This document shows, piece after piece, positions 21,232 to 42,847 of a DNA stretch of 64,000 bases. The position numbers and the translations under genes were made by a program. Below the pieces are notes generated by a model that saw nothing but the letters and a program-made list of their open reading frames with translations, ran no database searches and was not told the DNA's origin. Position 1 is the stretch's first letter. Each line of letters begins with the position of its first letter. Origin of the DNA: an uncultured Ignavibacteriota bacterium (GTDB lineage Bacteria > Bacteroidota > Ignavibacteria > UBA10030 > BY39); NCBI GenBank assembly GCA_947085285.1, contig CAMTVZ010000138.1, positions 330 through 64,329 on the forward strand, read 5' to 3'.

Positions 21232-21232
21232 T

Positions 21233-24837: not shown

Positions 24838-24853
24838 AATAAATTTCCTTTCC

Positions 24854-25831: not shown

Positions 25832-25842
25832 TTGAAAAGTAA

Positions 25843-26380: not shown

Positions 26381-26396
26381 TTCAATTCTTGTGCCA
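26381..26396 (-). promoter_or_regulatory. Putative sigma-54 promoter of the fliL-fliM-...-flhA operon (TGGCAC-N5-TTGAA).
   Basis: The minus strand reads TGGCACAAGAATTGAA, about 22 nt upstream of the fliL ATG. It has the same box and the same -12 variant as upstream of flgB. The leader would be very short. Confidence 0.4.
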
Positions 26397-26461
26397 AGCC
26401 ATTTTCTTACGTATTCATTGAAAAAATAGATTTTTAGATGGTAATAACTGTTCTGTGGCGA

Positions 26462-26489
26462 ATATCGGGCAGGTGTTGGATAAAATATA
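26462..26489 (-). promoter_or_regulatory. Sigma-28-like promoter upstream of fliL that parallels the flagellin promoter.
   Basis: The minus strand reads TATA-N15/16-(G)CCCGATAT and contains the CCGATA core. The plus-strand layout mirrors the flagellin region. The same G-tract motif sits immediately 5' of it. Confidence 0.3.
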
Positions 26490-26503
26490 GGGGGATAAAG
26501 AAT
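26490..26503 (-). promoter_or_regulatory. G-tract motif copy 3 (plus strand GGGGGATAAAGAAT), upstream of fliL.
   Basis: It abuts the sigma-28-like -35 and lies about 100 nt upstream of the sigma-54-like box. Confidence 0.4.
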
Positions 26504-26560
26504 TTATGATATAATTGAGTGTAGAATATTAGCCAAGTTAACTCTGCCGGATTGTGTATG

Positions 26561-27787
26561 TTATGGAATGGAATATTTTACACGTATAGGCTCTTTGATC
26601 GAGTCGCTCTTTTGCCATTGAAGAATCATTTTAATAAAAGTCTCGGTTAATATCGAGTATGAGCGAATTAGACACAGCCCATTTCTTGTTACGATATCCT
26701 GCATTAAAATCATTCCTGCCTGTAGCTCTTCAACGGTAACGTATTTTTCAACTTCATTCTTTTGTTGTTGGCTTTGCTCTGTTCCGAAAAATAAGTTCAA
26801 TAATTCTGGGTCATAAATATCGTTAGTGCTTACTAATTTTTTGTATAAATCACTCCCCTTATTATTCAAAGATATAAGTTTATCCATATCAATTAAGATA
26901 CGAAGCAACCGTGAGCCAAGAGGTAATTCGTTTCGACATACTTTTTCGAGTACCGGTTCCCCCTTTCCACTGTAATCTTTTTTACTAAAACGAATAATTC
27001 GTGCTACATTTTTAAATTTTGGTATGTTCTCAATCAGAGCCGCACCAAGAAGCTGGTGATTTTTTGCTTCAGCAAACCTTTCGATAGCCGATAGTCCCTC
27101 TTTGTTAAGTATAACTTGTATCCATGCTGGCAAAACAGCCACGCCAATATTGAATAAATCGAAAGCACTTTCAATCTCCCAACGTTCTAATTCACTTAAG
27201 GGGGGCAATTTTTTCAAAAAAACATTCCCTAATTGTCGTACTCGCATTGTTTGAGCATTTGCCTCGGGATTGATATAGACAATTAAGTCGCTCAGCAAGC
27301 GAACAGTACCACCAACTGTTCCACTGAGAAGCTCGTTAAGTTGAGAGTTTTTCGACTTAAGTACATTCAGTAAATATTTGTTTTCTTGTAATAGATTGTA
27401 TTTTTCAAGAGAATCTCTGAGTAGTTTTTTTAGGTCGTTATCATTCCATGGTTTATTTATATAATGACTGATTTTACCGATATTGATTGCCCGCAGTGTG
27501 TCGTCGAAATCGGCATACCCTGTAATCATTATTCGGATTGTTTCAGGGGAATATTCTGACACGGTTTGTAGTACTTTAACTCCATCTACTACCGGCATTC
27601 TCTGGTCTGAAAATACTACTGCGAAAGGGCCATGTAGATTGAGATAATCCTCTATTCTCTCAGATTTATCAAGAAGATGAATGTCGCAGTTTTCGTTGCG
27701 CATAAGGGAGCGAAAAGCCGAAAGAAGATTAGGTTCGTCATCAACATATAGAATTTTTCGATTTTGAGTATAAGTATCAGTTAGCAT
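26561..27787 (-). CDS. Response regulator with a receiver domain and a highly degenerate HD-GYP-like C-terminal domain.
   Basis: The REC domain reads ILYVDDEPN...FSDQRMPVVDG. The C-terminus reads DYSGKGEP where DGSGYP would be expected. No HD dyad is present. Confidence 0.6.
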   Translation of the reverse strand: MLTDTYTQNRKILYVDDEPNLLSAFRSLMRNENCDIHLLDKSERIEDYLNLHGPFAVVFSDQRMPVVDGVKVLQTVSEYSPETIRIMITGYADFDDTLRAINIGKISHYINKPWNDNDLKKLLRDSLEKYNLLQENKYLLNVLKSKNSQLNELLSGTVGGTVRLLSDLIVYINPEANAQTMRVRQLGNVFLKKLPPLSELERWEIESAFDLFNIGVAVLPAWIQVILNKEGLSAIERFAEAKNHQLLGAALIENIPKFKNVARIIRFSKKDYSGKGEPVLEKVCRNELPLGSRLLRILIDMDKLISLNNKGSDLYKKLVSTNDIYDPELLNLFFGTEQSQQQKNEVEKYVTVEELQAGMILMQDIVTRNGLCLIRSYSILTETFIKMILQWQKSDSIKEPIRVKYSIP

Positions 27788-27790
27788 AAA

Positions 27791-28984
27791 TTAAACCTTG
27801 ATTTTATTTAGCCATTTTTCTATAACATCCTGATTTTCGGCAGCATCGTTCAATTCTAACATTTCAGCGATCTGCATAATTTTAGAAATTTCGTTTCCAT
27901 TTTGATTAATATGATGGGATACTACAGCATCGATAATTTCTTCAGGATAATTCCATAGACGTAAAAGCTCGGCACTTATTTGTTCATGAGAAATTGGAAA
28001 AATTTTTTTGTCGGCTTCTGACAGTTTTATTTTTTCAGATTTTTGGATTGAAAGCATTTTTTCGTACTTCTCAAAATCTGAACAGATTCTGACTAACAAC
28101 CCAATATCTTGTAGCATCGATGCCACGTAAACTGTTTGTGAATCAACGGGGGTGCTCCAATGGGCCGATACCTCTTTCGCAAACAATGCACGTTTTAAAG
28201 CATTATCCCAAAATATTTCGACCTGTTTTTGAACTTCATCTGGTAAATCTTTCATCAAATTCTGATACATATCGATCGCTAAGGCGAGAATTTGTACGTA
28301 CGAGGTCCCTATAAAAATGATAGCATCCCTAATGCTTGAAATATGTTTATAAGAAGCGTAATAAACAGAATTAGCAATTTGTAATACTTTAGCTATAAGT
28401 ACCGGGTTTTGCCTGACCTCTTCGACAAGTTCGTTGAGGGAGCTTTCTTTTTTATTTAAAAAAGAATGGAATCGTTCGTTAAACTTTTTTGAGGGGGGTA
28501 AATTATTGAACTTCAATAAAACATCCGACAACTTTTCGCTACGTAGTTCGTTTTGCAGTTTTATCGTTTTCGAAATGTAGTTCTTTAGCGTTGCATCGTC
28601 CCACGGTTTTAAAAAGTATTGATTAGCCAATCCATTACTCAACGCATCTAAAATTATTTCTTTTTCTTCATAACCACTTACTATTACACGAATAGCATCG
28701 GGGCAAATTTCTTTTGCCACTCTTAACAAATCAAGCCCCCCTATTTCAGGCATTCGCATGTCGGTTAGAATTATATCCACATTATAATTTTCGAACTGAG
28801 AAATTGCTTCTTTGGCAGAAGTAAATTGTAAAATGTTATAACCCTCATGTCGAAACAACCGACTTAATGCCGAAAGTATGGCTTGCTCGTCATCTATAAA
28901 AAATAATGTTGTTTGAACATTAAACGATAATTTTTGAATTTCTTTTTTTTCAGAATTAAACATTTTTATTCTATAGGCTCCCAT
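27791..28984 (-). CDS. Response regulator with a receiver domain and an HDOD domain.
   Basis: The REC domain reads LFFIDDEQAI...LTDMRMPEIGG. The HDOD domain reads NELVEEVRQNPVLIAKVLQIANSVYYAS. Confidence 0.75.
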   Translation of the reverse strand: MGAYRIKMFNSEKKEIQKLSFNVQTTLFFIDDEQAILSALSRLFRHEGYNILQFTSAKEAISQFENYNVDIILTDMRMPEIGGLDLLRVAKEICPDAIRVIVSGYEEKEIILDALSNGLANQYFLKPWDDATLKNYISKTIKLQNELRSEKLSDVLLKFNNLPPSKKFNERFHSFLNKKESSLNELVEEVRQNPVLIAKVLQIANSVYYASYKHISSIRDAIIFIGTSYVQILALAIDMYQNLMKDLPDEVQKQVEIFWDNALKRALFAKEVSAHWSTPVDSQTVYVASMLQDIGLLVRICSDFEKYEKMLSIQKSEKIKLSEADKKIFPISHEQISAELLRLWNYPEEIIDAVVSHHINQNGNEISKIMQIAEMLELNDAAENQDVIEKWLNKIKV

Positions 28985-31760
28985 TTGTGTGTGGGAGGGT
29001 TATTCGGAATTTTGTCCCTTTATTTACTTCACTTTCAACAGTGAGTGTGCCTTTATGTTTTTGTATAATTGTCTTTGATATCCATAACCCGAGCCCTGTA
29101 CCTTTGCCAACAGCTTTAGTAGTAAAAAATGGATCGAAAATTTTATTCAAATGTTCGATAGCAATCCCACTTCCGTTATCGGAAATTTCAATAATAGCGT
29201 TCTTATCTTCAGCAAAAGTTTTGATTTTAATAAATCCTTTTTCGGGTATAGCTTGAGCAGCATTCACTAATAAATTAGTAAAGACTTGCTTAAGTTCGCC
29301 CGGATTGCACTTTATGAGAGGAAGAGAACTATATTCTTTTTTGATGTCAGCTTTATATTTTATTTCATTCCATACTAATGTTAAAGTATCCTCAATAGCA
29401 TCATGAATATTACTATCAATAAATTTATCGTCACCTTTATGCGAAAACACCCGTAGCTTATCGACTATAGTCTTAATTCTTTGTGTTCCTTCTCTTGTCT
29501 CTGCAATAAGTTTATTAAAATCTTGCACAATAAAAGTAATATCAACTCGGCGTTCCAAGTCTCGTAGATCTTGCAAGAGTGCCTGTACTTCTGGTCCCTC
29601 ATTCACAAACATACCAAGAATTTGCCATTTCCTTAAAACATTCGTCAGATCTTCGATATATTCCCCAAAACGATTCAGATTGCTCGAAACAAATGCGAGG
29701 GGGTTGTTAATCTCGTGAGCAATTCCGGCTGTTAACTGTCCGATTGACGCCATTTTTTCTGATTGTATTAGGTGTTCCTGCATCTCTTTAATATTCTCGA
29801 TCATACTTTCTAATTCTTGGTTTCGCTTTAGTAGTTCCAATTCGAGAGCTTTTCGTTTCGAGATATCTCGAACAACTGCCTGGATTATTTTTTTCCCATC
29901 TAATTCCATCGCAGTTAGGAGGACTTCTGAAGGGAAATCGGTTCCATCTTTACGCCGATGTACCCATTCAAAACAGTTATTTCCTTTTTCGAGAGCGTAA
30001 TTAATTTGCTGATTTGCAAGTTGTTTTGAGTCGATATTTCCAAATTGCATCGGAGGCGAAACTTCTGCAAGATTTTGTTTACAAAATTCTTCTTTCGAGG
30101 TATAACCAAACATAGTCAGAGTTGCGTTGTTGCAATCAAAAAAACCATTTTCATCCAGAAGCATTACTGCGTTGCCGGTCGATTCATAAAGAGTACGGAA
30201 TTTTATTTCAGAATTTCTTATTGCTTCTTCTGCCATCATCTGCTCAGTTATATTTTCTATTATTCCCTCAAAAAATAATATTTCACCCGTGTCGTTCAGC
30301 TGAACCCGTTCATTCAAATTAACATATATAACGCTCCCATCTTTTTTCTTTAATTTGATTTTAAGATTCTCAGTTTTTTTTCTTTCTTTAGTTCTTTCAA
30401 GTACACTCTTCCGATCGGCTGGGTCGTAATATAGTTGCGTTGGAATATCAATACTCATTAAATCTTCTGCCGATTTATATCCTAACATTTTAACAAGTGC
30501 CCGATTTACTTTTATAAACTTACCATCTTGACTCGTTCGGAATATCCCATGGACAGCGTTTTCAAATATCGACCTGTAATCTTCTTCCGATTGTTTAAGT
30601 GCCTCTTCAATTTTCTTTCTTTCAGTAATATCTTCCCACAAACTCTCAAAAAACAGGATGTTGCCAGCCTCGTCTTCTACAATTCTTTTATCTAATTTCA
30701 CGTTTATAAGACTGCCATCTTTTTTTTTCAACACTAGTTCATAATTTTTTATACTTTTCTTCTCTATTAATTGGGAATGTAGATTAGCTTGGTCTGATGG
30801 ATTTAAATATATTTGAGTAGTAATATCGAGACTCATCAACTCTTCTTCCGACTCATATCCTAACATTTTAACCAAGGCTGGATTTACTTTGATGAACTTA
30901 CCATCTGCACTTGTTCGAGCAATTCCTTGAATAGCATTTTCAAAAATTGTTCTATAATCTCGTTCCGATTGTTTTAACTCCTCTTCGATTTTTTTTCGAG
31001 CTGTAATATCTTGCATAATACAAACAAAACCTACAAATTCTTTTTTTGAGTTACGTCTTGAAGAAATCGAGGTTTCGAAAAAACGAGTTCCATTCAACGA
31101 TTTTAGATTCCATTCGAACATTACATTCGGTTCGATCTTAGCCCGTTCCGAGGCAATCTCGAAAAGGTCGCCATTCTTTTCGCCTAATACTTCATATACA
31201 GTTTTGTTTTTATAACGGTTAAAATCTATTCCGTATATGTGTGTCATTTGTCCGTATGCTTCTTTAAAACGTAAATCTTCGTCAAGTGTAAAAACTATGC
31301 CGCTGATGGAGTCGAGGATGGTTCGCATTAATTCCTCGTTTTCGCGCAAAGTAATTTCAGCTTTTTCCTTTTGATCGATGAAGTTTTTATTTGAGATGGC
31401 TTGTTCGATAGCAGGAATGAAACGAGTAAAATTAGTTTTCATGATGTAATCGGTGGCACCGGCTTTGATCAATCCAACTGCCAGTTCTTCGTCCAAAGCC
31501 CCGGTAACAAAGATAAACGGAACAGAAGGGGCGTGCTGTTTAGCAAGTTGAAGTGCGAGCATCCCATCGAAATCGGGAATCGAATAATCCGAAAGAATAA
31601 CATCGGGTTTAAAATTTTCGAGTGCATCTAAAAAACTGTCACGCGTAGAAACTAACTTAGAAGTAAATTGCAAATGGTTAGTTTCGAAAAATTCATTATA
31701 AAGATTGAAGAATTCTTCATCATCTTCTATAATTAAAATGTGTATTTTTTCTTTCGACAC
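28971..31760 (-). CDS. Hybrid sensor kinase: N-terminal receiver, three or four PAS domains, HisKA, HATPase_c. It appears to start at a GTG codon.
   Basis: The REC domain reads ILIIEDDEE...LSDYSIPDFDG. PAS blocks repeat as QDITARKKIEE and EDITERKKIEE. The H-box reads AHEINNPLAF. The G-box reads GTGLGLWISKTI. Confidence 0.85.
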   Translation of the reverse strand: MSKEKIHILIIEDDEEFFNLYNEFFETNHLQFTSKLVSTRDSFLDALENFKPDVILSDYSIPDFDGMLALQLAKQHAPSVPFIFVTGALDEELAVGLIKAGATDYIMKTNFTRFIPAIEQAISNKNFIDQKEKAEITLRENEELMRTILDSISGIVFTLDEDLRFKEAYGQMTHIYGIDFNRYKNKTVYEVLGEKNGDLFEIASERAKIEPNVMFEWNLKSLNGTRFFETSISSRRNSKKEFVGFVCIMQDITARKKIEEELKQSERDYRTIFENAIQGIARTSADGKFIKVNPALVKMLGYESEEELMSLDITTQIYLNPSDQANLHSQLIEKKSIKNYELVLKKKDGSLINVKLDKRIVEDEAGNILFFESLWEDITERKKIEEALKQSEEDYRSIFENAVHGIFRTSQDGKFIKVNRALVKMLGYKSAEDLMSIDIPTQLYYDPADRKSVLERTKERKKTENLKIKLKKKDGSVIYVNLNERVQLNDTGEILFFEGIIENITEQMMAEEAIRNSEIKFRTLYESTGNAVMLLDENGFFDCNNATLTMFGYTSKEEFCKQNLAEVSPPMQFGNIDSKQLANQQINYALEKGNNCFEWVHRRKDGTDFPSEVLLTAMELDGKKIIQAVVRDISKRKALELELLKRNQELESMIENIKEMQEHLIQSEKMASIGQLTAGIAHEINNPLAFVSSNLNRFGEYIEDLTNVLRKWQILGMFVNEGPEVQALLQDLRDLERRVDITFIVQDFNKLIAETREGTQRIKTIVDKLRVFSHKGDDKFIDSNIHDAIEDTLTLVWNEIKYKADIKKEYSSLPLIKCNPGELKQVFTNLLVNAAQAIPEKGFIKIKTFAEDKNAIIEISDNGSGIAIEHLNKIFDPFFTTKAVGKGTGLGLWISKTIIQKHKGTLTVESEVNKGTKFRITLPHTNGSL

Positions 31761-31814
31761 TTTGCGACTTTCATTATTATTCGTCTAATTAATTTTATTT
31801 TCGCCGATTGTTTA

Positions 31815-31846: not shown

Positions 31847-31864
31847 CAAAACACATCAACAATT

Positions 31865-33130
31865 TTAACGTTTAATATTTACAACCTCAGTTAAAAATTC
31901 ATCACTCGTAGTAATAACTCGTGCGTTAGCCTGAAAACCTCGTTGAGCAGTAATCATCTTTGTAAATTCATCTGCTAAATCTACGTTCGATTGTTCGAGC
32001 CCGCCTGAGACTAAAATTGAATTTGAAGCGCCCCCTGGATTAAAAATTACCGGCATACCGGCATTACTTCCAATTTCGTACATATTATCCCCGATTCGGA
32101 GTAATCCTGATGGATTGTTGAATTCAGCCAGCATAATTTGACCTAAAGCTTGAACAGTGCCGTTTGAGAATGAGCCAAGAATTTTTCCGTTCTGATCAAT
32201 TGAAATATCGTTCAACGATCCTGCAGCATAACCATCCTGTTCCGTTGGCGACACGTTGGATAGTCCGTTGGTTTGAGTTATACCTGAAAAAATTCCTGGC
32301 GTACCAGCATTAAGAGAAATCGCTAAAGGTGAAGCACCGTTATTAGGATTAAGATTCAAGGCCGAAGCACCTCCAGCGTATGTAAATGTTTGTAAAGTTC
32401 CATCCGAATTGAAAGTAGCAACACCACTTCCGCCGGATGTAATAGTAACAGGAGCTTGGCTATTGGCAGTCCAGGTCCATTCGTTTGCGTTCACAGTCTT
32501 TGTGAAAGTTACTGTAACTGCATGTCTGTTTCCTAATGAATCGAAAACAGTTAACGAAGTGTTAACCGAAGTGCCGGTTTGGGCTGCCGAATCTAGGTTT
32601 CCAGATAGTTTGATATTGCTCGTAGCGCGGGCTGGGGACTTGGTATCGAAAGCAATCACTAAGTTTTCCAACCTGTTGCCGGTGGGAATGTTACCTGTTG
32701 CATCGGCTAACTTACCTTGAAGTATAGCACCTGTGCCGGGAGATACTATTCTACCCATTGCATCAATTTTGAAACCGCCGTCGCGGGTATAATAATTTTT
32801 TCCGTTTTTATTAACTACAAAAAAACCGGTCCCTTGAATTGCAAGGTCGGTTGCCTGATCGGTCGATTCGATATTGCCTTGATGGAAGAGGGTATCGACA
32901 CGAAGGGTAGCCATGCCTAAACCGACTTGAATTGGGTTCGAGCCACCGTTTTCGTTAGTAGGGAGCGAGCCAGCCCTTAAAGTTTGTGCAAACATTTCGC
33001 CGAAGGTTGCCCTCCCCGCTTTAAAACCGATTGTATTAATATTCGCAATATTATTACCTATAACATCCATCATTAATTGATGATTACGAAGTCCTGAGAC
33101 TCCAGCTGATAGTGATCTTAAAAATGCCAT
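31865..33130 (-). CDS. flgE: Flagellar hook protein FlgE.
   Basis: The N-terminus reads MAFLRSLSAGVSGLRNHQLMMDVIGNNIANINTIGFK. The C-terminus reads TKMITAQRGFQANARVI. Confidence 0.9.
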   Translation of the reverse strand: MAFLRSLSAGVSGLRNHQLMMDVIGNNIANINTIGFKAGRATFGEMFAQTLRAGSLPTNENGGSNPIQVGLGMATLRVDTLFHQGNIESTDQATDLAIQGTGFFVVNKNGKNYYTRDGGFKIDAMGRIVSPGTGAILQGKLADATGNIPTGNRLENLVIAFDTKSPARATSNIKLSGNLDSAAQTGTSVNTSLTVFDSLGNRHAVTVTFTKTVNANEWTWTANSQAPVTITSGGSGVATFNSDGTLQTFTYAGGASALNLNPNNGASPLAISLNAGTPGIFSGITQTNGLSNVSPTEQDGYAAGSLNDISIDQNGKILGSFSNGTVQALGQIMLAEFNNPSGLLRIGDNMYEIGSNAGMPVIFNPGGASNSILVSGGLEQSNVDLADEFTKMITAQRGFQANARVITTSDEFLTEVVNIKR

Positions 33131-33245
33131 AATTATGGTTCCTTTATTTTTTTATTGTTGATTAATTACCAAGCTTCTGTCGTTCGGCTCGGTAAGGGCT
33201 TCCATAAATGGACCAGCCCAATTGTTGTTTAGTTAATTATAAAAT

Positions 33246-33635
33246 TCATGATGCAATTACTGCACTGTCGATATTCGTGAATACATTTTGTTTCAACGAC
33301 TCGTTATCTATTGTCGTTATTATTGTTCTGTTTTTTACACTTACTATAAATGCCATATCGCGCAGTATCACCAGCGATTCTTGCGCACCTTTTAATTCAG
33401 CTTTATCGACTGCGGCTTCTAATTTTAAAAAATCGATGCTGCTTAATTCTATTTGTCTCGACTCGAGCCGTTCTTTGGCGTGCTTCGAAAACTTTAACTT
33501 GTTAAGCTCTTTCTGAAATATGTTTTCGAATGACCGCTCATTCGGTATTTCGATGGTTTTGTTGTTAGGTAAACCATTTACTCCGCCTATCGGAACAAAC
33601 GGAACATTCACACCATTTATTGTTGTATCCGTCAT
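33246..33635 (-). CDS. Small flagellar-operon protein between flgD and flgE, probably the family I recall as TIGR02530.
   Basis: A 129 aa protein with the motif FSKHAKERLESRQI. Its position matches the flgD-orf-flgE arrangement I recall from Clostridia and Spirochaetes. Confidence 0.45.
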   Translation of the reverse strand: MTDTTINGVNVPFVPIGGVNGLPNNKTIEIPNERSFENIFQKELNKLKFSKHAKERLESRQIELSSIDFLKLEAAVDKAELKGAQESLVILRDMAFIVSVKNRTIITTIDNESLKQNVFTNIDSAVIAS

Positions 33636-33639
33636 AATT

Positions 33640-34311
33640 TTATCCTTGCATAATTTCTAATATTGAAGATAATCGTACTTCGATTCCATTCACCAAAAAC
33701 ACAGCACCTTCAGCTTTATATCGTACCGATGTTACAGTACCAAAAATGTATGGCGATGCATTAATTTTTTTTCCGTTTATGTCTTTACTTTCCACTTCGA
33801 ATCTGTACCTACCATTCGCAGCATTCTCGCCTTGTTCGTTCTTTCCGTTCCAAACAATCTGGTTATCGCCTTTCGCAACAGGTCCGCTGATTGTTCTCAC
33901 AAGGTTCCCTTTTTCATCAAATATCTTGATGGTTGACGAAGCTGCGGCTTCAGGAAGCGAAAATCCAAGCTTAACTTCGTTTCCTGTGAAGTTTATTTCG
34001 TTCACACTCGAACGAACCTGCTTGCCCACAAACGCAGCTGCGAGTGCATTATTTATAGATTGAGCAATAACCGCGTTAGTATCCAAGCTTTGCATTAAAC
34101 TCGATTTAATATTGTGCAATTGCTCAACCGAACTAAACTGGGCTAACTGGGCTGCGAACTCGGTTCCTTTCATCGGATTCATAGGGTCCTGATGCCTTAG
34201 CTGCATTATGAGCATTTTGAGAAAATCATCTTTTCCCAAAGTAGTTGTACGATTTGTTGCTTGAGTGTTTTTAGTAAAATTTGTTGTCGTATTTGTTATT
34301 GCATTTGACAT
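33640..34311 (-). CDS. flgD: Hook capping protein FlgD.
   Basis: LGKDDFLKMLIMQLRHQDPMNPM matches the FlgD family. Confidence 0.85.
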   Translation of the reverse strand: MSNAITNTTTNFTKNTQATNRTTTLGKDDFLKMLIMQLRHQDPMNPMKGTEFAAQLAQFSSVEQLHNIKSSLMQSLDTNAVIAQSINNALAAAFVGKQVRSSVNEINFTGNEVKLGFSLPEAAASSTIKIFDEKGNLVRTISGPVAKGDNQIVWNGKNEQGENAANGRYRFEVESKDINGKKINASPYIFGTVTSVRYKAEGAVFLVNGIEVRLSSILEIMQG

Positions 34312-34324
34312 TGATTCTCCTTCA

Positions 34325-35578
34325 CTAAATTAAATATTCGATAGTGTTGTAGCCCAGCATCTTAATTGATTCCTCTGCTTCCTCAACTAGTTCATTATAT
34401 GCTGCCGCATTATTTGGGTTATCGTTTTGCTTTTTATGATTATTAAATGATGCTGAATTACCACTCGTAAATATATCGATTTGTTGAACATCAATTCCGC
34501 GAGCTAACAGTGAATCGCGTAACTGCGGCATGTGCGATTCAATAATTGTTTTTACGGCTGTATGAGGTACTTCAATCTTTACGGTTGCCTTACTCTCTTC
34601 CATTCTGACTTTTAAATTAAGCTCTCCCAAGTTTTCGGGATGGAGTTTCATTTTCATTTCCGATATTTCGTTTTTTAAATTAAGCACAATAGTTTTAATT
34701 ATGTTATCAGCGTCGCTTTGTGTAATTGCTGATACAGGAACTTGGAGAACACTATCCGGATGTTTTGTTCCAACTGGTTGATTGTCGAATAAAGATTGAA
34801 AATTTCCCAAATTGAATAAATTCGTTTTCGGTGTAACCGTCGTTGTTGCTATGCCTTCGCTTTGCGAAATCACAGTTTTATCTCGTGCTACTTCGTTATT
34901 TATCGATTTATCTTTAATCTCTGTTTTTGCTGTAACTGGTTCTTGTTGTTGCTTCTCGATTTTTTTTATTTGCGATAAAGGGATATTAGCATCATCGAAA
35001 GACGTTTCTGCTTGAATTTCAGATTTAGATTTTTCAATTTGAATTACCGGTTTTATAGCTGTTGCAACCATTTGTGTAGTCGTTAATAATTCAGGAGAGT
35101 TGAGTCCTTTTAATGCTTGTGTAATATTCTGTTGATAAACAGATGCACTAAACTTTGAGATCAGCTCCGTTTCGATACCAATGTTTTCGTTGTGCATTTT
35201 TAGATTTTCGATTACACCGATTTCTACAGTAGATTGTTTGTTAGTGTTCAATATATTTTTTTCGGTTGGTAAGTTTTTTTCGTTCGTCATAATCGTTTGT
35301 TTATCGGGGAGATCAACCCATAATGTTGAGGGAACAATTTTGTTCCCCTGGTCGGCTTTCAGGCTCGAAATATTTTCATTCGTCGCTGTTAATTGTTGAG
35401 TGTTTAATTCATTCAATACAGTTGGTGTAACGAGTTTGCGTGTTTGGTCGGTAACCCCAGCCGACAACTCCATTAACAATGCCGAGAAAGTGGGGTTTGA
35501 TTCTGTAATATTTACGGGCGGCTCAATTTCTAATATCTCAGCATTAGGTTTGATAATATTGATAGTTGGCATATTCAT
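34325..35578 (-). CDS. fliK: Hook-length control protein FliK.
   Basis: The C-terminal Flg_hook domain reads LHPENLGELNLKVRMEESKATVKIEV. The N-terminus is long and low-complexity. Confidence 0.75.
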   Translation of the reverse strand: MNMPTINIIKPNAEILEIEPPVNITESNPTFSALLMELSAGVTDQTRKLVTPTVLNELNTQQLTATNENISSLKADQGNKIVPSTLWVDLPDKQTIMTNEKNLPTEKNILNTNKQSTVEIGVIENLKMHNENIGIETELISKFSASVYQQNITQALKGLNSPELLTTTQMVATAIKPVIQIEKSKSEIQAETSFDDANIPLSQIKKIEKQQQEPVTAKTEIKDKSINNEVARDKTVISQSEGIATTTVTPKTNLFNLGNFQSLFDNQPVGTKHPDSVLQVPVSAITQSDADNIIKTIVLNLKNEISEMKMKLHPENLGELNLKVRMEESKATVKIEVPHTAVKTIIESHMPQLRDSLLARGIDVQQIDIFTSGNSASFNNHKKQNDNPNNAAAYNELVEEAEESIKMLGYNTIEYLI

Positions 35579-36114
35579 TTCATTAATTCGATTGCTTTTT
35601 CAGGTTCAAGCAAGCTTAATATCTTTGCAGCTTGCCGTTTTTTCATGTTTTTTAGAATTATTTTAGCCTCCTCGATTTCCATTTGTTGTATAATACGCGA
35701 AGCATTATCAGCACTCATCGCTTCCAATAGCTTTACCGTTGCTATGTTATTTGCATTTTTAGTGCTGTCGGATATTTTCGCAATATCAGCAGACTGGCGA
35801 ATTAATTCATCAAATTTTTTCTGTTGATTTTCCAGTTCCAATTTTAACAAATGTTTGCTATCGACTTTTTGCATAATAGGGGATGTGTCGGGTTTAGTTT
35901 GTTGGGCTAATGAATCGGCATTTTGTGCAATGAGACTATCGGTTTGAACTTTTTGAACTGTCGACACTGTATCGGTAACACTAATATTATTAGTACTTGT
36001 GAATAATTCCGGCTTCACAGCAACTAATAAAAGTGCAATCTGTAGAATAAAAAAGAGAGATAAAAATGATACCAAAATGTAAATTCCTATACTTTTCATA
36101 ATTTTAGAATACAA
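35575..36114 (-). CDS. Flagellar protein with a C-terminal MgtE-N-like domain (YlxF/FlbB-like).
   Basis: The C-terminus reads AKIILKNMKKRQAAKILSLLEPEKAIELMK. Its position between fliJ and fliK matches ylxF in B. subtilis. Confidence 0.5.
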   Translation of the reverse strand: MYSKIMKSIGIYILVSFLSLFFILQIALLLVAVKPELFTSTNNISVTDTVSTVQKVQTDSLIAQNADSLAQQTKPDTSPIMQKVDSKHLLKLELENQQKKFDELIRQSADIAKISDSTKNANNIATVKLLEAMSADNASRIIQQMEIEEAKIILKNMKKRQAAKILSLLEPEKAIELMK

Positions 36115-36547
36115 TCTTTATTCGTTGAGCCAATACATCAATTTGGTTCTGTAAAATTTTTTCATTTTCGTTAGCAATTTCTTCAGAATGTTTTTCATTT
36201 AATTTTTCAATTATCTTTTTAGATTTTGTTTTTTCTGTCAGCTCTACTCGTTTATCATCTTCTTGGTCTATGATATTTTCTATAACTTCTTCTTGTTCTT
36301 GTATCTGATGAGAAAGCGACCTTAAATATGCTTGATGGTATTGTAAATCGCGAGCGTTCGCAGAGATAGTTTGACGAGTTTCTGCAATAGCGGCATCGTT
36401 TACTTTTATTAGATTGTTTAAGTTTTCAGTTTCCACTTCCCGTTTATTCTGAATTGCTACAAGTTCACGATGCGCCTTTTCTTCGAGATACTTTTTTATT
36501 TTAGATACACATTTTAATTGAGCTTGGTTTTTTGTCATCTTTAACAA
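36104..36547 (-). CDS. fliJ: Export chaperone FliJ.
   Basis: A 147 aa coiled-coil protein immediately after fliI. Confidence 0.65.
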   Translation of the reverse strand: MLKMTKNQAQLKCVSKIKKYLEEKAHRELVAIQNKREVETENLNNLIKVNDAAIAETRQTISANARDLQYHQAYLRSLSHQIQEQEEVIENIIDQEDDKRVELTEKTKSKKIIEKLNEKHSEEIANENEKILQNQIDVLAQRIKIVF

Positions 36548-36552
36548 TCCAT

Positions 36553-37911
36553 TTATAATAATTTTAAGATACGATTTATACTTTCGTTGTAGTCGGCATA
36601 TTCTTCAGAGCTTTGTTGAAGAAATGCTTTTATCTTCGGCATATTAAGAAGAGCTTCATCAATTTTCGGGTTGCTGCCTTTAACATAGGCACCAATATTT
36701 ATCAAGTCTTCGGCTTCACGATAAGCAGCCATTAATTCAAAAACCCTCTGTACAGCTTGCCTGTGTTCGACTGAAGTAATAGAAGGCATAACACGACTAA
36801 TGCTTTCGAGAACATCGATAGCAGGATAGTGACCGGCAGAAGCCAATCGACGGGATAAAACAATATGCCCGTCGAGAATTGAGCGCACTGTATCTGCAAT
36901 CGGGTCGCGCATATCATCTCCTTCAACTAAAACAGTGTACATCCCTGTGATACTTCCCTTTTTAGCATTACCTGCCCGTTCGAGTAATTTGGGGAGTAGA
37001 GCAAACACCGATGGGGTATATCCTTTTGTTGTAGGGGGTTCGCCAATTGCAAGTCCAACTTCGCGTTGCGCCATAGCTAAGCGGGTAACCGAATCCATCA
37101 TCAGCATAACATCCGATCCTTTATCTCTAAAATATTCGGCAATAGCGGTAGCCATAAATCCAGCTTTTATACGCAGAAGTGCGGCTTGGTCGCTTGTAGC
37201 AACTACCACTACCGAACGTTGTAAACCTTCCTTTCCAAGTTCGCGTTCTAAAAATTCCCCCACCTCGCGTCCTCTTTCGCCAACAAGGGCTATAACATTT
37301 ACATCTGCTTGGGTATTGCGAGCAATCATACCGAGAGTTACACTTTTTCCAACTCCGCTCCCAGCAAAAATACCGATTCGCTGCCCCTTACCGCAAGTCA
37401 ACATTGCATCAATTGATCTGATACCAGTAGCTATCGAGCTTGTTATTCGCTGGCGATCGAGAGGGTTGGGAGGAAGAGAATAAACAGACCTGATTTCGTC
37501 TGCATCGATTGGACCTTTTCCGTCGATCGGATGCCCCAATCCGTCAATCACTCTTCCGAGTAATGCATCGCCGACCGGAACCGAAAGAGGATGCCCAGTA
37601 GCAACAATCTCGCTTCCGGGGCTTACTTTTCCGACTTCCCCTAAAGCCATTGAAAGAACGCGGTTATCCCGAAATCCCACCACTTCGGAACGACAAACAA
37701 CTTCCCCCTCTTTTGATTTGATTTCGCAGACTTCGCCAAGAGATGAATTTGGGCCAACAGACTCGATTACCAAACCAATAACTTGAGTTACTCTGCCATT
37801 TACCTTGAGTAAATCGATCCTTCCGAGCTGAGAAAGACTGGCATCCAGAAAATCATACTGACCGATATCGGTAATAGCAATTTGGTCGTCGTTTATTTCG
37901 TATGCAAACAT
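36553..37911 (-). CDS. fliI: Flagellum-specific ATPase FliI.
   Basis: Walker A reads GIFAGSGVGKSVTLGMIARN. Walker B reads VMLMMDSVTRLAMAQRE. Confidence 0.95.
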   Translation of the reverse strand: MFAYEINDDQIAITDIGQYDFLDASLSQLGRIDLLKVNGRVTQVIGLVIESVGPNSSLGEVCEIKSKEGEVVCRSEVVGFRDNRVLSMALGEVGKVSPGSEIVATGHPLSVPVGDALLGRVIDGLGHPIDGKGPIDADEIRSVYSLPPNPLDRQRITSSIATGIRSIDAMLTCGKGQRIGIFAGSGVGKSVTLGMIARNTQADVNVIALVGERGREVGEFLERELGKEGLQRSVVVVATSDQAALLRIKAGFMATAIAEYFRDKGSDVMLMMDSVTRLAMAQREVGLAIGEPPTTKGYTPSVFALLPKLLERAGNAKKGSITGMYTVLVEGDDMRDPIADTVRSILDGHIVLSRRLASAGHYPAIDVLESISRVMPSITSVEHRQAVQRVFELMAAYREAEDLINIGAYVKGSNPKIDEALLNMPKIKAFLQQSSEEYADYNESINRILKLL

Positions 37912-37915
37912 AAAT

Positions 37916-38608
37916 CTATTGTAATGAGATATTGTTTATCAATACATCTTCGAGTTTTGTCAGTTGCGATGTTATTCTCGCATCAACATTTCCTGATTCA
38001 CTTTCTATGATGCAACTTCCTCGTTCAATCTTTTCATCAGTTTCTATTGCAATCTCACGTATCGAATCGGAACTACCTTGGAGAATTGATTTTTGAGACC
38101 GCACAAGTTCGGCATCATCCGGATTAATTCGTATCTTTACTTGTTCAACTCCAACAATTCTGCTGAGTGCATCTTTAATTTGGCTCAACACAATTTCAGA
38201 CCCCAACATTATAGCTCGTTTAACAATTTTTTCTGCAACAGCGATTGCAAACTTTAATACAATGTATTCTGATTTTCTATGCAGATGCACAAATTGGTCG
38301 TGCATGCTTGAAATTAATTTCTGCATTCTGTTCTTTTCGTTTTCAAGTAATGCTTCGTATGTTTGGCGCATTACTTCTTCAGCTTTGATAATCCCTTCTT
38401 CGTAACCCCTCCGGTAATCTTCGTCTGCCCTTGCTGAGACTGGCTCTGACAATTCAGATTGGTTTTCATTCGAAACATTATCTTGTTCAACTTCAGTATT
38501 GTCCCACGGCACAAACTTGCCCTCATAATTTTCGACAAGTAAGATCTCGAGACCGTTAATGCTGTTTGACTTTAAAATATTAGACAAGAATTTCCTCCTT
38601 TCCGCCAC
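37916..38608 (-). CDS. fliH: FliH.
   Basis: A 230 aa acidic, coiled-coil protein between fliG and fliI. Confidence 0.7.
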   Translation of the reverse strand: MAERRKFLSNILKSNSINGLEILLVENYEGKFVPWDNTEVEQDNVSNENQSELSEPVSARADEDYRRGYEEGIIKAEEVMRQTYEALLENEKNRMQKLISSMHDQFVHLHRKSEYIVLKFAIAVAEKIVKRAIMLGSEIVLSQIKDALSRIVGVEQVKIRINPDDAELVRSQKSILQGSSDSIREIAIETDEKIERGSCIIESESGNVDARITSQLTKLEDVLINNISLQ

Positions 38609-39605
38609 GTCCTGATACGACTATTTCCCCCTGTTCTTCGAGGTTTTTAACAATTTCGATAATTCTTTGTTGCGCTGCTTCAACATCCTTCAATCGAACA
38701 GGTGCCATGTATTGCAACTCTTCTTTTACAAGTTCTTGGGCTCGTTCCGACATATTAGAAAAAATCTTCTGCTTCATCGTTTCGTCGGCAACCTTTAACG
38801 ATATTGCCAAATCTTTTTTATCAATTTCCCGCAATATTCTCTGGATGCCGCGACTGTCAATTTTTATGAGGTCTTCAAATTGGAACATCATTTTCTTTAC
38901 ATCGCCCGACAGAATTTCATCTTTCTGGTCGAGGTGTTCCAAAATAGATTTAGAAGTAAGGTTATCGCAGTTGTTTAATATTTGAGCCACCAATTTTTTC
39001 CCCACGATAGACTGTTTTTCGGTCCCATGTTCGGAAGAAATCAGATTGTTTACGATACTTTCGATTTCGTGGAGAATATTTTTAGGAACTTTCTCTATGG
39101 AAGCCATTCGGTAACTTACATCGTTTCGTGTATCGGTGGGAAAGAACTCGATAACTTCCCCCGCTTTTTCAGCCTCCAGATGTAAAAGTATAATTGCTGC
39201 TGTTTGAGGATGCTCCTCCATTAAAAGTTTGGCAATCTTCTCGCTTTCGATGGCATTTAATTTCTCGAACGATTTAGAGCTCCCTTTAAATTTTACCTTT
39301 TCGATAATTTCTCCTGCTTTTGATTTGCCTAAGGATTGCTCGAGAAATTTTTTAGCCCCCAACTCCCCCCCCTGAATGAAAATTTTATTGGTAGCAGCTA
39401 ATTGAAAAAATTCCTTATAAACTTGATCGACATGGTTGTCTGAAACATTTTTTAAACCGGTAATTTCGCGTGTAATCTCTTCGATTTCTTTTTGCGAAAA
39501 GTATTTCATTAATTTTGCTACGGTTTCTACATCAAGCGAGAGCAAAAATAAAGCTGCTTTTTGCTTTTTAGTTAATTTTTCAGATGTCTCTTTTTTATCA
39601 GGCAT
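38580..39605 (-). CDS. fliG: Rotor protein FliG.
   Basis: The N-terminus reads LTKKQKAALFLLSLDVETVAKLMKYFSQKEIEEI. The C-terminal torque helix region is present. Confidence 0.9.
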   Translation of the reverse strand: MPDKKETSEKLTKKQKAALFLLSLDVETVAKLMKYFSQKEIEEITREITGLKNVSDNHVDQVYKEFFQLAATNKIFIQGGELGAKKFLEQSLGKSKAGEIIEKVKFKGSSKSFEKLNAIESEKIAKLLMEEHPQTAAIILLHLEAEKAGEVIEFFPTDTRNDVSYRMASIEKVPKNILHEIESIVNNLISSEHGTEKQSIVGKKLVAQILNNCDNLTSKSILEHLDQKDEILSGDVKKMMFQFEDLIKIDSRGIQRILREIDKKDLAISLKVADETMKQKIFSNMSERAQELVKEELQYMAPVRLKDVEAAQQRIIEIVKNLEEQGEIVVSGRGGKEEILV

Positions 39606-41101
39606 TATTCCTCATCAGCTAACCAAGCTTTTAATAAGCGCGAAGCTTCTTCCGGATTATTATTCAATAACTCGGCAACTACTTCGCGCCGGTTCCCTTG
39701 ATTTAAAATAGCATCGTATTTTCCTTGCAACGCAGATGGTGCTAATGCAGCAATACCCTCAATAGAATTATCAGTGTTCTTAAATCTTTTTAAAAGCGAC
39801 AATAAAATAACAACCGCGGCCCCCATTGCTATTGCAATAATTAGTAATTTAATCCAATCATCATATTTTGTTACAGGGTCGATCTGATATTGAAAATCAT
39901 CATTTATATTTTCAACTGCAAAAGGAAGATTTACAACTGATATTTCGTCGCCTCGCTGAACATTATAACCGACCGCTCTTTTTACAACTTCCGATATTTT
40001 CATTAATTCATCTTCAGTTCGAGGTTCATTCTCGGTAACAGTCTCGTTGCCTTTTGTTACAACTTTTTGTTTTCCGTTCACAGTAACCGCAATAGATATG
40101 CGTTTGATACTCCCTTGATTTTCAATTATTCTTTCAATTTCTTTATTTATTTCATAATTAGTAACAGTATTGGTACGAATCGATGAAGGGGACGAATCTT
40201 TGGAAGTTGTTTTATCTTCACTTAGCTGCTCGCTTCGTATTGCAGTATTTTCAGGGTCGTATTTTTCCATCGTTCTTTCAACTTGTCTGAAATCGAGTTC
40301 GGCATTCACCTGAACAATTGCATTGTTTGCACCTAACACTCCGTCGAGCAGTGATTGTGCTTTGCTTGTAAGAGATGCTTCAACCTGATGTTGGAGTTCG
40401 TATTGCGCAGCGGTGAGCGAGGCAAAATTATTTTGCTTGTTGTTATTAGATAATAACATCCCACGCGAATCGACTACCGTTACATTTTCCGGATCCAAGC
40501 CTTCGACGCTACTCGAAATTAAATGAACAATCCCTTGAATTGTTTCGGGGCTCGGAGCTTTTCCTGTTCGTAATTTTAAAATCACTGAAGCAGTGGGTGG
40601 CTTTTCGTCTTCCTTAAATAATTTTCTTTCGGGCAATACTATATGCACACGAGCCCCTTCCACTTCGCCAATTTGAAGAATCGTTCGAGCTAATTCTCCT
40701 TCTAAAGCTCGTCGATAATTTACTTTTTGAACAAAATCTGAAATTCCTAAATTCGTTTTGTCGAATATTTCGTAGCCAACAATACTCGACTGTGGAAGCC
40801 CCTCGCCGGCAAGCGATAACCTTAAATCGTATATAATTTCCTTTGGAACTAATATAGTTGAGCCGTTTCCTTCGAGTTTATAAGCTATCGATTTCTCTTT
40901 TAATTTTTCAACTATTTTTGAGGCATCCTGCGGTGCTAAATTACTGAAGAGAGTTCCATAATCGGGACTATTTACAAACATCACCAACGATATTACTGCA
41001 ATAAGGGTTACAACTAAAACTCCTGCAATAATCAGCTTTTGCGAAGTAGAAAGTTTTTTAAAAAACTCAAACGATTGATTTAAATTTAGTTCCTTATCCA
41101 T
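39605..41101 (-). CDS. fliF: MS-ring protein FliF.
   Basis: At 498 aa it has an N-terminal TM segment, a YscJ-like periplasmic domain and a C-terminal TM segment. Confidence 0.9.
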   Translation of the reverse strand: MDKELNLNQSFEFFKKLSTSQKLIIAGVLVVTLIAVISLVMFVNSPDYGTLFSNLAPQDASKIVEKLKEKSIAYKLEGNGSTILVPKEIIYDLRLSLAGEGLPQSSIVGYEIFDKTNLGISDFVQKVNYRRALEGELARTILQIGEVEGARVHIVLPERKLFKEDEKPPTASVILKLRTGKAPSPETIQGIVHLISSSVEGLDPENVTVVDSRGMLLSNNNKQNNFASLTAAQYELQHQVEASLTSKAQSLLDGVLGANNAIVQVNAELDFRQVERTMEKYDPENTAIRSEQLSEDKTTSKDSSPSSIRTNTVTNYEINKEIERIIENQGSIKRISIAVTVNGKQKVVTKGNETVTENEPRTEDELMKISEVVKRAVGYNVQRGDEISVVNLPFAVENINDDFQYQIDPVTKYDDWIKLLIIAIAMGAAVVILLSLLKRFKNTDNSIEGIAALAPSALQGKYDAILNQGNRREVVAELLNNNPEEASRLLKAWLADEE

Positions 41102-41106
41102 AATTA

Positions 41107-41412
41107 TTATACCTGCATCCTCATTATTTCACGGTATGCATCTATTGCTTTGTTGCGCACTTCCATCAATAACTCGAAACTAGTTTTTGCTTTTTCTGCG
41201 GCAATCATTACCTCGTGTAAATCAATTGGATCGCCTTTTACCAATTTTTCTACAGCTTCTCCGGCTTGAGCTTGCAAATTATTTACAGCCGCCGTTGCTT
41301 CTTTTAAAGTTTCGCCAAACGATTTGTTGGTTTCTTGAATCGCTTCGTTTATTTTCTGTTTCTTTTGCATAGCATCGTTCGGTAACAATGTTAATCTGTT
41401 GCTGATTTTCAT
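41107..41412 (-). CDS. fliE: FliE.
   Basis: The 101 aa protein ends in DLHEVMIAAEKAKTSFELLMEVRNKAIDAYREIM. Confidence 0.8.
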   Translation of the reverse strand: MKISNRLTLLPNDAMQKKQKINEAIQETNKSFGETLKEATAAVNNLQAQAGEAVEKLVKGDPIDLHEVMIAAEKAKTSFELLMEVRNKAIDAYREIMRMQV

Positions 41413-41414
41413 AT

Positions 41415-41663
41415 CTATCCTTTCCTGTCGATTACTGTTCCAACCTGCATTTTTTTTGGAGTTCCTGATTTGCTGTAAAAATATTCTTCCCGAATTTCCT
41501 TCGAAGCTTCGGGAAAAACCTTTTCAAAAAATTTTGTTTCGGCCTTTGATAAAATTTCGTTCTTAATGTTCTCTGTAATTTGAAAATTAGCCTTGTCGGC
41601 TTTCTTATATTTATTTACCAAAAGCGATTGGGTGATTGATGATTTTATTTCGTTAACATTCAT
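41415..41663 (-). CDS. Hypothetical 82 aa lysine-rich protein inserted between flgC and fliE.
   Basis: A tightly packed ORF with 3-nt gaps on both sides. I recognise no family. The canonical flgB-flgC-fliE triplet is interrupted here. Confidence 0.4.
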   Translation of the reverse strand: MNVNEIKSSITQSLLVNKYKKADKANFQITENIKNEILSKAETKFFEKVFPEASKEIREEYFYSKSGTPKKMQVGTVIDRKG

Positions 41664-41666
41664 TAA

Positions 41667-42164
41667 TCAAATCTCCAGACTGTCTTTAGCTATACTTTTT
41701 TCAGCATTAATAACAGTTACGTTGGCTTCGTAAGCTCGTGAGGCTGAAATCATATTCACCATTTCAGCCACTATGTTTACATTTGGGAGGCGAACATAAC
41801 CGTCTTGGTTCGCATCGGGGTGAGTGGGGTCGTAAACCATTTTTAAATGCGAATCGTCCTCTTCAACCTCTATTTCGATCGATTTTACAGGGTTTTGAGA
41901 AACTGGTGTTTCGATTTCCGCCACTGATATATGATTAGGATTTGTTGTACTTAGCGAAGCGCTATGTTCGCGAATTGTGCTTAGAAACGACTGCTTCGAT
42001 GTTTGTTTTACTTGAACTACTTTTCGTTTGTAAGGCAAACCCTCTTCGGTTCGTGTCGTTTCAGTATTTGCAATATTTTCAGCGATTGCATCCATACGTT
42101 TGCGTTGCACTTTCAAACCGAATGCTGCAACATTTAGCCCGGAAAAAATTTTTTCTAGTTTCAT
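41667..42164 (-). CDS. flgC: Proximal rod protein FlgC.
   Basis: The N-terminus reads FSGLNVAAFGLKVQRKRMDAIAENIANTETTRT. The C-terminus reads VNMISASRAYEANVTVI. Confidence 0.9.
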   Translation of the reverse strand: MKLEKIFSGLNVAAFGLKVQRKRMDAIAENIANTETTRTEEGLPYKRKVVQVKQTSKQSFLSTIREHSASLSTTNPNHISVAEIETPVSQNPVKSIEIEVEEDDSHLKMVYDPTHPDANQDGYVRLPNVNIVAEMVNMISASRAYEANVTVINAEKSIAKDSLEI

Positions 42165-42583
42165 GAATATCCTTTTATACTTTTTTGAATACCTTTAAAA
42201 CTATCGGCAATAATTCGTGCAGCAAACTTAAACCTGATTTGATTTTTTGCTAACTCAGCCATTTCTAAATCGATGTCCACATCGTTAATACCGCTTTTTA
42301 GTTCATTGTCGCTATTCCCCTCCACAGAATTTTCAACTACTTTTGGATTTAGATCCGTAAACTTTGAAGAGTTTATAGGAATATGATCAGGATGAGTGCA
42401 GCCATCTATGTTGGAATTTTTCGACATCGCTAAGTTTAGTTCTTCCTCAAATCTTACACTTTTACTTTTGTATCCTTCTGTAGTAATGTTTGCAATATTC
42501 AATGCGATTGTTTTTTGACGGAGCGAATAAGCATCGAGGGCTTTGCTCAACAACGGTATTTTTGTCTTGTTGAAAATATTCAT
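42161..42583 (-). CDS. flgB: Proximal rod protein FlgB.
   Basis: The N-terminus reads LDAYSLRQKTIALNIANITTEGYK. The C-terminus reads MAELAKNQIRFKFAARI. Confidence 0.85.
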   Translation of the reverse strand: MNIFNKTKIPLLSKALDAYSLRQKTIALNIANITTEGYKSKSVRFEEELNLAMSKNSNIDGCTHPDHIPINSSKFTDLNPKVVENSVEGNSDNELKSGINDVDIDLEMAELAKNQIRFKFAARIIADSFKGIQKSIKGYS

Positions 42584-42804
42584 TTGCTATCCTTAAATAA
42601 CGAAGCTGGAATCGCCAGCGATGTTCCACAGCAATCTATTTGATGTGTAAATATCAACAACCCTTCCGGTCGCAAACCCAAATGTATTTTTTTTCTGTCT
42701 ATCATGTGTCCATTAAAATCGATATCCTGGTCATTCAAAAAGGTTTCTTTCGATTCCCAGCTTTTTCCACATAAAGTACAGTTTTTAAAAACTTTATTTC
42801 GCAT
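42580..42804 (-). CDS. Small Cys-containing protein with CxxC and a CC pair, possibly a zinc ribbon. It is the first ORF of the flgB operon.
   Basis: The 74 aa protein starts MRNKVFKNCTLCGKSW and ends QIDCCGTSLAIP. It overlaps the flgB start by 4 nt. Its ATG lies about 20 nt downstream of the putative sigma-54 box. Confidence 0.4.
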   Translation of the reverse strand: MRNKVFKNCTLCGKSWESKETFLNDQDIDFNGHMIDRKKIHLGLRPEGLLIFTHQIDCCGTSLAIPASLFKDSK

Positions 42805-42831
42805 ATATTCTTTTTGTTTTTAAAACATATG

Positions 42832-42847
42832 TTCAAACGATGTGCCA
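42832..42847 (-). promoter_or_regulatory. Putative sigma-54 promoter of the flgB operon (TGGCAC-N5-TTGAA).
   Basis: The minus strand reads TGGCACATCGTTTGAA, about 28 nt upstream of the first ATG (42804). The -12 element reads TTGA, not TTGC. A sigma-54 activator is encoded immediately upstream. Confidence 0.5.

Follow-up and report, generated by a model that had tools for sequence, protein, structure and literature searches.

We analysed a 64 kb stretch of DNA (hereafter the window) from an uncultured Ignavibacteriota bacterium, GenBank assembly GCA_947085285.1, contig CAMTVZ010000138.1, with a focus on two sequences resembling sigma-54 (RpoN) promoters that head its flgB and fliL flagellar operons. 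Every gene in the window is encoded on the minus strand. The best matches of its FlgE protein, 51–68% identical, belong to metagenome-assembled genomes labelled Ignavibacteriota, Ignavibacteriae, Bacteroidota or Chlorobi, which places the window in Ignavibacteriota. Annotation with Pfam and NCBIfam gives the gene order kinase, activator, a 388-nucleotide (nt) gap, a 74-amino acid (aa) open reading frame (ORF), flgB to flgE, three signalling genes, a 202-nt gap, fliL to flhG and then fliA (16065–16784), with flagellin, fliS, fliD and flaG upstream of the kinase gene. The kinase and activator genes are thus encoded directly upstream of the flgB promoter, and the pair adjoins it also in three related loci (L081, L086 and L028; L numbers are our handles for relatives' loci). 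Coordinates are collected in table 1.

Table 1. Features of the flagellar locus, in window coordinates (UAS, upstream activating sequence).
Feature	Position	Strand	Evidence or remark
flgB-operon sigma-54-type box, TGGCAC-ATCGT-TTGAA = TGGCACATCGTTTGAA	42847..42832	−	−24 GG at 42846–42845; −13 G/−12 A at 42834–42833
fliL-operon sigma-54-type box, TGGCAC-AAGAA-TTGAA = TGGCACAAGAATTGAA	26396..26381	−	Pattern search, orthologous boxes
Candidate UAS site 1 of flgB box, TGGCTAATAGTTAACA	42933–42918	−	Begins 86 nt upstream of box
Candidate UAS site 2 of flgB box, TGTCTAATAGTCTCCA	42914–42899	−	Begins 67 nt upstream of box
Candidate enhancer site A of fliL box, TGGCTAATATTCTACA	26535–26520	−	Begins 139 nt upstream of box, 64 nt from site B
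Candidate enhancer site B of fliL box, TGCCCGATATTCGCCA	26471–26456	−	Begins 75 nt upstream of box
NtrC-type response regulator/sigma-54 activator: REC, AAA+ with GAFTGA, HTH_8	43193–44608	−	Pfam Sigma54_activat (E = 3e-72), Response_reg, HTH_8
Soluble PAS-HisKA histidine kinase	44605–45645	−	Pfam PAS_9, HisKA; 4-nt overlap with activator gene
74-aa leader gene, Cys2-His-Cys protein of uncharacterised family	42580..42804	−	dN/dS, family search
flgB-operon body: flgB, flgC, 82-aa ORF, fliE, fliF, fliG, fliH, fliI, fliJ, MgtE_N-like, fliK, flgD, TIGR02530-type protein, flgE	31865..42583	−	Pfam, NCBIfam
fliL-operon body: fliL, fliM, fliN, fliO, fliP, fliQ, fliR, flhB, flhA, flhF, flhG	17027..26358	−	Pfam
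Canonical sigma-28 promoter, TAAA-N15-GCCGATAA, of flagellin gene (48679–49503)	49630–49604	−	Late tier; reference FliA promoter of this organism

The pattern TGGCAC-N5-TTGAA occurs exactly twice on the two strands of the window, at the two boxes, and in none of 100 dinucleotide shuffles. They are also the sole intergenic matches at up to two mismatches to TGGCAC-N5-TTGM. The flgB-operon box ends 27 nt before the first ATG (42804) and the fliL-operon box 22 nt before its own (26358). When scored with a position weight matrix (PWM) derived from the fliL boxes of 27 relatives only, the flgB box is the top match in the window, at 24.4 bits. Both boxes carry an exact TGGCAC with its GG in the −24 element; in the −12 element the spacing (the GC position lies 10 bp after the GG) and the TTG fit, and the −12 base is A, not C. 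The earlier note, made by a model from the letters of this DNA, had picked out two boxes of the same format here, 22–28 nt before the first ATG and at the head of the flgB and fliL operons. Its coordinates are right and its distances agree with ours, while the operon assignment is borne out by the annotated gene order and by conservation of the boxes at orthologous positions in about 33 related genomes. A plus-strand match, TGGCACCGGCTTTGAT (31454–31469, 21 bits by the lineage PWM), was discarded as chance since the orthologous codons of L091 and L092 show no conservation; it sits antisense in a hybrid kinase gene, within the REC domain. Candidate sigma-70 promoters were also sought in both intergenic regions, and none beat shuffled sequence.

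Relatives were searched with an open pattern, TGG[CT]A[CT]-N5-TTGNN, which leaves the −12 and −11 bases free. Applied to the gaps between flgE and fliL, it gave one plus-strand match in each of 27 Ignavibacteriota loci. Close relatives were added by exact-protein look-ups (L081, L085, L086 and L088–L092); L081 and L089 come from the same sample (SRR15359042) and were assumed to represent one organism, L085, L088 and L092 are one contig, and L086, L090 and L091 are another. Further additions were L014, L028, a Candidatus Kryptobacter locus (L087) and L084, the single locus yielded by a metagenome scan with FlgB. Boxes ahead of the flgB operon were found in L081, L085, L086, L084, L014, L028 and L087. 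The resulting tally comprises 39 boxes before a fliL or flgB operon: two in the window and 37 in other promoter regions, from approximately 33 related genomes.

TGGCA and TTG are invariant across all 39 boxes, and 36 of them have a T at −16. At −12, 34 boxes have A, three have C (L008 fliL, L028 flgB and L087 flgB) and two have T. The A is kept in genomes of 59–62% G+C as well as in the window's own clade, at 36–39% G+C, which argues for selection rather than drift. We conclude from this comparison that the −12 A is probably a selected, lineage-typical variant of these flagellar promoters and no defect. Boxes of the close clade read TTGAA or TTGAG, with the fliL box conserved as TGGCAYAARRWTTGAR. 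In four-way alignments of close relatives, mean identity is 53% across the flgB intergenic region and 72% across the fliL region, and in both alignments the box and the upstream sites described below are the only invariant blocks (two or three per region). Six genomes have both promoters known, and in each the −12 base agrees in kind: A at both promoters in the window, L081+L089, L085+L092, L086+L091 and L014, and non-A at both (C/T) in L028. This agreement is suggestive of a genome-wide determinant, with the caveat that four of the five A/A genomes belong to one clade, which counts against certainty. One public FliL gene call, on the SRR22387906 contig (L088 5001/L092 10001), begins 45 nt too early and runs over the sigma-54 box; it is the conserved start, ATGGAAAACGAAA, that aligns to the ATG of the window.

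An internal control was provided by alphaproteobacterial flagellar loci (L037–L080, mostly Geminicoccaceae); in 31 of them the same open pattern detected a syntenic plus-strand box (for example, L080 7684–7699) approximately 2–2.9 kb upstream of flgE, ahead of a likely fliK-flgD-flgE unit. These boxes, TGGCAC-N5-TTGC, have C at −12 in 31 of 31 cases. An A at −12 was thus seen in 0 of 31 alphaproteobacterial boxes versus 34 of 39 boxes from Ignavibacteriota and Kryptonia, a comparison made with one method on one data set of non-independent boxes. The earlier note's remark that GA at this position is unusual holds in general, as 96% of known sigma-54 promoters have a C at −12, a figure given in PMC4551910 with reference to Barrios et al. 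(1999).

We consider it likely, on this comparative sequence evidence, that the boxes are genuine sigma-54 promoters of two early flagellar operons. The idea that they are two chance matches could appeal only to the AT-rich composition of the window; with none expected, and with conservation at orthologous positions in about 33 genomes, it is refuted for all practical purposes. A second alternative takes TTGAC as the −35 hexamer of a housekeeping-sigma promoter, with TGGCA as an adjacent operator or a coincidence and no involvement of sigma-54. TTGAC(A) is indeed identical to the sigma-70 −35 consensus, and one subgroup of relatives has CCACAAT approximately 18 nt downstream, but no −10 partner is common to the clades and it would go unexplained why an unvarying TGGCA stands exactly 6 nt upstream in all 39 boxes. 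Moreover, the best −35/−10 pairings in the window reach only 8–9 of 12 positions and would place the transcription start no further upstream than the ATG, boxes of the close clade read TTGAA or TTGAG rather than TTGAC, and a gene for a GAFTGA activator adjoins. We regard a housekeeping promoter as very improbable.

The proteins encoded next to the flgB promoter fit a sigma-54 system. An activator with an intact GAFTGA loop and its kinase, just upstream of flgB, had been proposed in the earlier note and are confirmed by Pfam and by the sequences themselves; no function is known for a GAFTGA activator in the absence of sigma-54. The kinase sequence has no hydrophobic segment. Orthologues of the activator in the close clade are 81–83% identical to it, retain GAFTGA and have an identical recognition helix. 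Against NCBIfam models, the activator scores 309 bits with FlgR (NF049963; cut-off 750), so it is no FlgR equivalog, and 395 bits with NtrC (cut-off 558.6); the AtoC, NtrC and FlbD models all outscore FlgR, each below its own cut-off. A search with the RpoN-box motif found no rpoN match in the window or in 1.5 Mb of relatives' loci, an expected and uninformative result. Supplementary file 8 of PMC12316311 records, for both Ignavibacterium album (IALB_2998) and Melioribacter roseus (MROS_1125), an RpoN that has all three domains (activator-interacting, core-binding and DNA-binding). Neither further activator genes nor non-flagellar sigma-54 promoters were found in the relatives' loci.

Upstream of both boxes, beginning 67–139 nt away, lie 16-bp sites with symmetric ends that match TGnnnRATATTnnnCA. 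The two flgB-side sites form a direct repeat with 19-nt spacing, which a repeat finder picked up independently, within a conserved block (approx. 42894–42936) that is nearly invariant among four close relatives. Sites A and B of the fliL promoter are conserved in the close clade; site B is the best match in the whole window to a PWM built from the corresponding element of the 27 more distant loci (19.5 bits; maximum of 30 random sequences, 17.5). In those loci the 16-bp element has the consensus TGGCYRATAWTARCCA, lies 86–110 nt upstream of the fliL box and is invariant at the positions TG....ATA.T..CCA. Ahead of the flgB box, L028 has two adjacent copies that make a near-perfect palindrome, Kryptobacter (L087) has TGCCTAATATTGTTCA and TGCCCAATATTCTTCA, 26 nt apart and 93 and 67 nt upstream of the box, and L084 has a half-site, TATTAGCCA, approximately 80 nt upstream. 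The position of these tandem sites, their symmetric ends and layout, their conservation and their presence at both boxes are consistent with binding of the activator.

The earlier note had placed the enhancer of the flgB operon in the intergenic region (42805–43192) and named a G-tract and an imperfect inverted repeat in it. Its location is supported by the conserved tandem candidate sites found there, whereas the two named elements lack conservation in relatives. The inverted repeat, ATTAGAGA/TCTCTAAT, is present at 43089–43096 and 43116–43123. It was rejected as an enhancer or terminator: L081 has lost it by deletion, L086 lacks it, its RNA fold is no better than that of shuffled sequence (z-score −1.5) and no terminator was called. 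The C-run (a G-run on the plus strand) near 43000, TTATCCCCC, was likewise rejected as an enhancer element, as it is not conserved in close relatives. Within the window, TTATCCCCC(C) recurs on the minus strand upstream of flagellin (approx. 49640), flgB (approx. 43000) and fliL (approx. 26490). A separate match to the enhancer PWM, TGGTTGATATTAACGA (45575–45560, minus strand; 16.8 bits), lies 70 nt inside the kinase gene with a score in the random range, and could possibly reflect autoregulation or chance.

The upstream elements could instead be sigma-28 (FliA) promoters with a −10 element GCCGATAW, so that sigma-28, by itself or in tandem with sigma-54, would transcribe the operons. Of the 27 relatives, 19 have GCCGATAA or GCCGATAT as the left half of the element; the window has CCCGATAT there in its fliL region, and fliA belongs to the flagellar cluster. 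However, column counts show no TAAA at N15 upstream of the relatives' elements, while the flagellin promoter of the window is a perfect TAAA-N15-GCCGATAA, indicating that this organism uses a standard sigma-28 promoter. The positions of the element that never vary are TG....ATA.T..CCA and not the CGA core; CGA is lacking in all flgB-side sites (window, L081, L085, L086, L028 and L087) and in two of the four close-clade fliL sites. The tandem spacing of 19–21 or 64 nt is also as expected of an oligomerising activator. We therefore judge sigma-28 promoters at these positions improbable. Just before the flagellin promoter itself (approx. 49650–49680), a hairpin followed by a T-run, read by eye, looks like a terminator for the upstream gene.

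If the boxes are sigma-54 promoters, the following scheme can be proposed. The soluble PAS kinase would phosphorylate the NtrC-type activator, which would bind the tandem upstream sites of each box through its Fis-type helix-turn-helix (HTH) and oligomerise on them. By DNA looping it would then reach the closed complex of the sigma-54 holoenzyme, and its GAFTGA loop, with ATP, would open the promoter. Transcription would begin near 42821 and 26370, giving A-rich leaders of 17 and 12 nt without a Shine-Dalgarno sequence. The fliL transcription unit would continue towards fliA, and FliA would in turn drive flagellin from the canonical sigma-28 promoter.

Several points weigh against this interpretation. 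The −12 GC, one of the two dinucleotides that define a sigma-54 promoter, is missing from both boxes. The case is built on sequence, from which the promoter starts are predicted, and the assignment of the upstream sites to the activator draws on where they lie, on their symmetry and tandem layout, and on how well they are conserved. Many relatives have GCCGATAW, the sigma-28 −10 consensus, as the left half of the site. rpoN lies outside the window and the relatives' loci, and its presence in this genome is presumed. The 39 boxes are phylogenetically non-independent. Finally, the −12 evidence covers flagellar promoters, so that GA may be a property of the sigma-54 of the lineage or one of these two promoters' own.

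The A at −12 can be read in several ways. Every sigma-54 promoter needs an activator. The earlier note had suggested that GA might make the two boxes weak, activator-dependent promoters, a view that fits poorly with an A kept in 34 of 39 boxes, including those of 59–62% G+C genomes. Loss of the −12 C is, besides, associated with less tightly repressed, leakier basal transcription and not with stronger activator dependence, as stated in PMC4551910. We tentatively prefer the idea, as yet unproven, that in Ignavibacteriota the −12 element recognised by sigma-54 has changed from TTGC to an extended TTTGA(C), a promoter ‘dialect’ that may have arisen after the split from Kryptonia. In its favour are the agreement in kind of the −12 base in each of the six genomes, the near-invariant T at −16 and the TTGCA of the flgB promoter in the outgroup Kryptobacter. 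It would also be possible for GA to be a promoter-specific tuning, in which a weaker fork-junction lock makes these sigma-54 promoters leakier or more easily activated and the sigma-54 of the lineage otherwise prefers TTGC. The −12 C restrains basal transcription, and in E. coli it tends to be missing from promoters that show low-level bypass transcription (PMC4551910); the GC boxes of L008, L028 and L087 imply that GC is usable in the wider group. Yet the two promoters of a genome agree, five times as A/A and in L028 as non-A/non-A, which is better accommodated by a determinant in trans, and the T at −16 suggests a shifted recognition element; we find promoter-specific tuning somewhat doubtful. 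The remaining probability falls to a mixture of the extended TTTGA element with such tuning, or to neither.

Among known systems, FlgS/FlgR of Campylobacter jejuni and Helicobacter pylori is similar in that a soluble kinase and an NtrC-type regulator activate RpoN-dependent basal-body and hook genes, with flagellin in a sigma-28 tier (PMC3930126). A DNA-binding domain is missing from H. pylori FlgR, and its C. jejuni counterpart can dispense with the C-terminal domain, both proteins acting enhancer-free (PMC3930126). In the window, as in an FlgS/FlgR-type system, the soluble kinase and NtrC-type regulator are encoded in the flagellar cluster, but unlike for FlgR, HTH_8 and tandem upstream sites are conserved. 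In the epsilonproteobacteria, the export-gate genes are sigma-70 class I genes and the sigma-54 promoters read TTGC. Here, by contrast, the export-gate genes (fliPQR and flhBA) also stand behind a sigma-54 box, on which basis the activator appears to be at the top of the flagellar hierarchy. FlrB/FlrC of Vibrio and FleS/FleR of Pseudomonas resemble our pair as two-component systems in which flgB-type operons (class III) are transcribed from −24/−12 promoters under an NtrC-type activator that has a DNA-binding domain. FlrBC and FleSR are placed below a master activator, FlrA or FleQ, and their promoters are canonical TTGC, whereas the 64 kb cluster studied here showed no second activator. NtrB/NtrC at glnAp2 offers a parallel in its tandem dyad-symmetric sites approximately 100–140 bp upstream, GAFTGA-bearing AAA+ domain and Fis-type HTH, but the system in the window differs in its site (TGnnnRATATTnnnCA), its regulon, an NtrC score below the equivalog cut-off and its −12 A. 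The fliK-flgD-flgE promoter of Geminicoccaceae and related Alphaproteobacteria shares a syntenic, conserved TGGCAY-N5-TTG box before hook genes and differs in its −12 C (TTGCT/G/A), found in all 31 boxes compared to three of 39 in the Ignavibacteriota/Kryptonia set.

The 74-aa ORF that follows the flgB box overlaps flgB by 4 nt (ATGA). Compared with its orthologues in L081 and L086 it shows 70–78% nucleotide identity and a dN/dS of 0.11–0.14, and an exhaustive HMMER search returned a family of 144 cluster representatives, of which 26 reached E ≤ 1e-10. The low dN/dS and the size of the family show that it is a real gene, the first behind the flgB-operon promoter in the window's clade, as the earlier note had supposed when it took this Cys-rich ORF for the leader gene. 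C9, C12, H54 and C59 are invariant in the family and suggest a zinc site. AlphaFold models the protein with confidence (pLDDT 87.6), and Pfam, NCBIfam and the PDB yielded no similar entry. In L014, L084 and L087 a small membrane-protein ORF takes its place.

Between flgE and the fliL promoter (26561–31760, minus strand) lie genes for a REC-4xPAS-HisKA-HATPase hybrid kinase, a REC-HDOD protein and a REC-HD protein. This three-gene insertion is found only in the AT-rich close clade (window and L088–L092); in the other 27 Ignavibacteriota loci flgE is immediately followed by the fliL promoter. Transcription of the flgB operon may extend through the three signalling genes, since the 104 nt that follow flgE yielded neither a terminator nor a promoter. 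Beyond the upstream end of the flagellar cluster are a PEGA-domain Ser/Thr kinase gene (51861–54374) and type VI secretion-like genes encoding VgrG (61264–63021), PAAR (57796–58440), a TssG-like protein (58455–59315) and a peptidoglycan-binding protein (57133–57795), all on the minus strand; no sigma-54 box was found ahead of any of them (51861–63021).

Almost nothing has been described of how flagellar genes are controlled in the Bacteroidota/Chlorobiota/Ignavibacteriota group. The only remark on the subject in the I. album genome paper is that FlhDC is absent, and our literature search found no publication on sigma-54 promoters of Ignavibacteria. In a 2025 cross-phylum sigma-54 survey, Ignavibacteriota feature only in a supplementary table and not in the main text. 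New here are the lineage-wide −12 A in probable sigma-54 flagellar promoters and a newly defined candidate enhancer motif, the likely enhancer sequence of the flagellar operons. Together they give a testable three-tier scheme, with a two-component activator and sigma-54 above two early operons, followed by a late tier of FliA and flagellin. They also carry a warning, as consensus-based (TTGC) scans for sigma-54 promoters will miss the regulon in this phylum. Few bases of sigma-54 promoters are as well conserved as the −12 C, which is linked to the mechanism by which the enzyme is kept silent, so a lineage in which A appears to have been selected is natural material for testing how the −12 position locks the polymerase. 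On the current view, the −12 C nucleates the fork junction that holds the sigma-54 holoenzyme in its repressed, locked state; if the proposed shift in recognition is true, this lineage would have rebuilt the lock with a different base.

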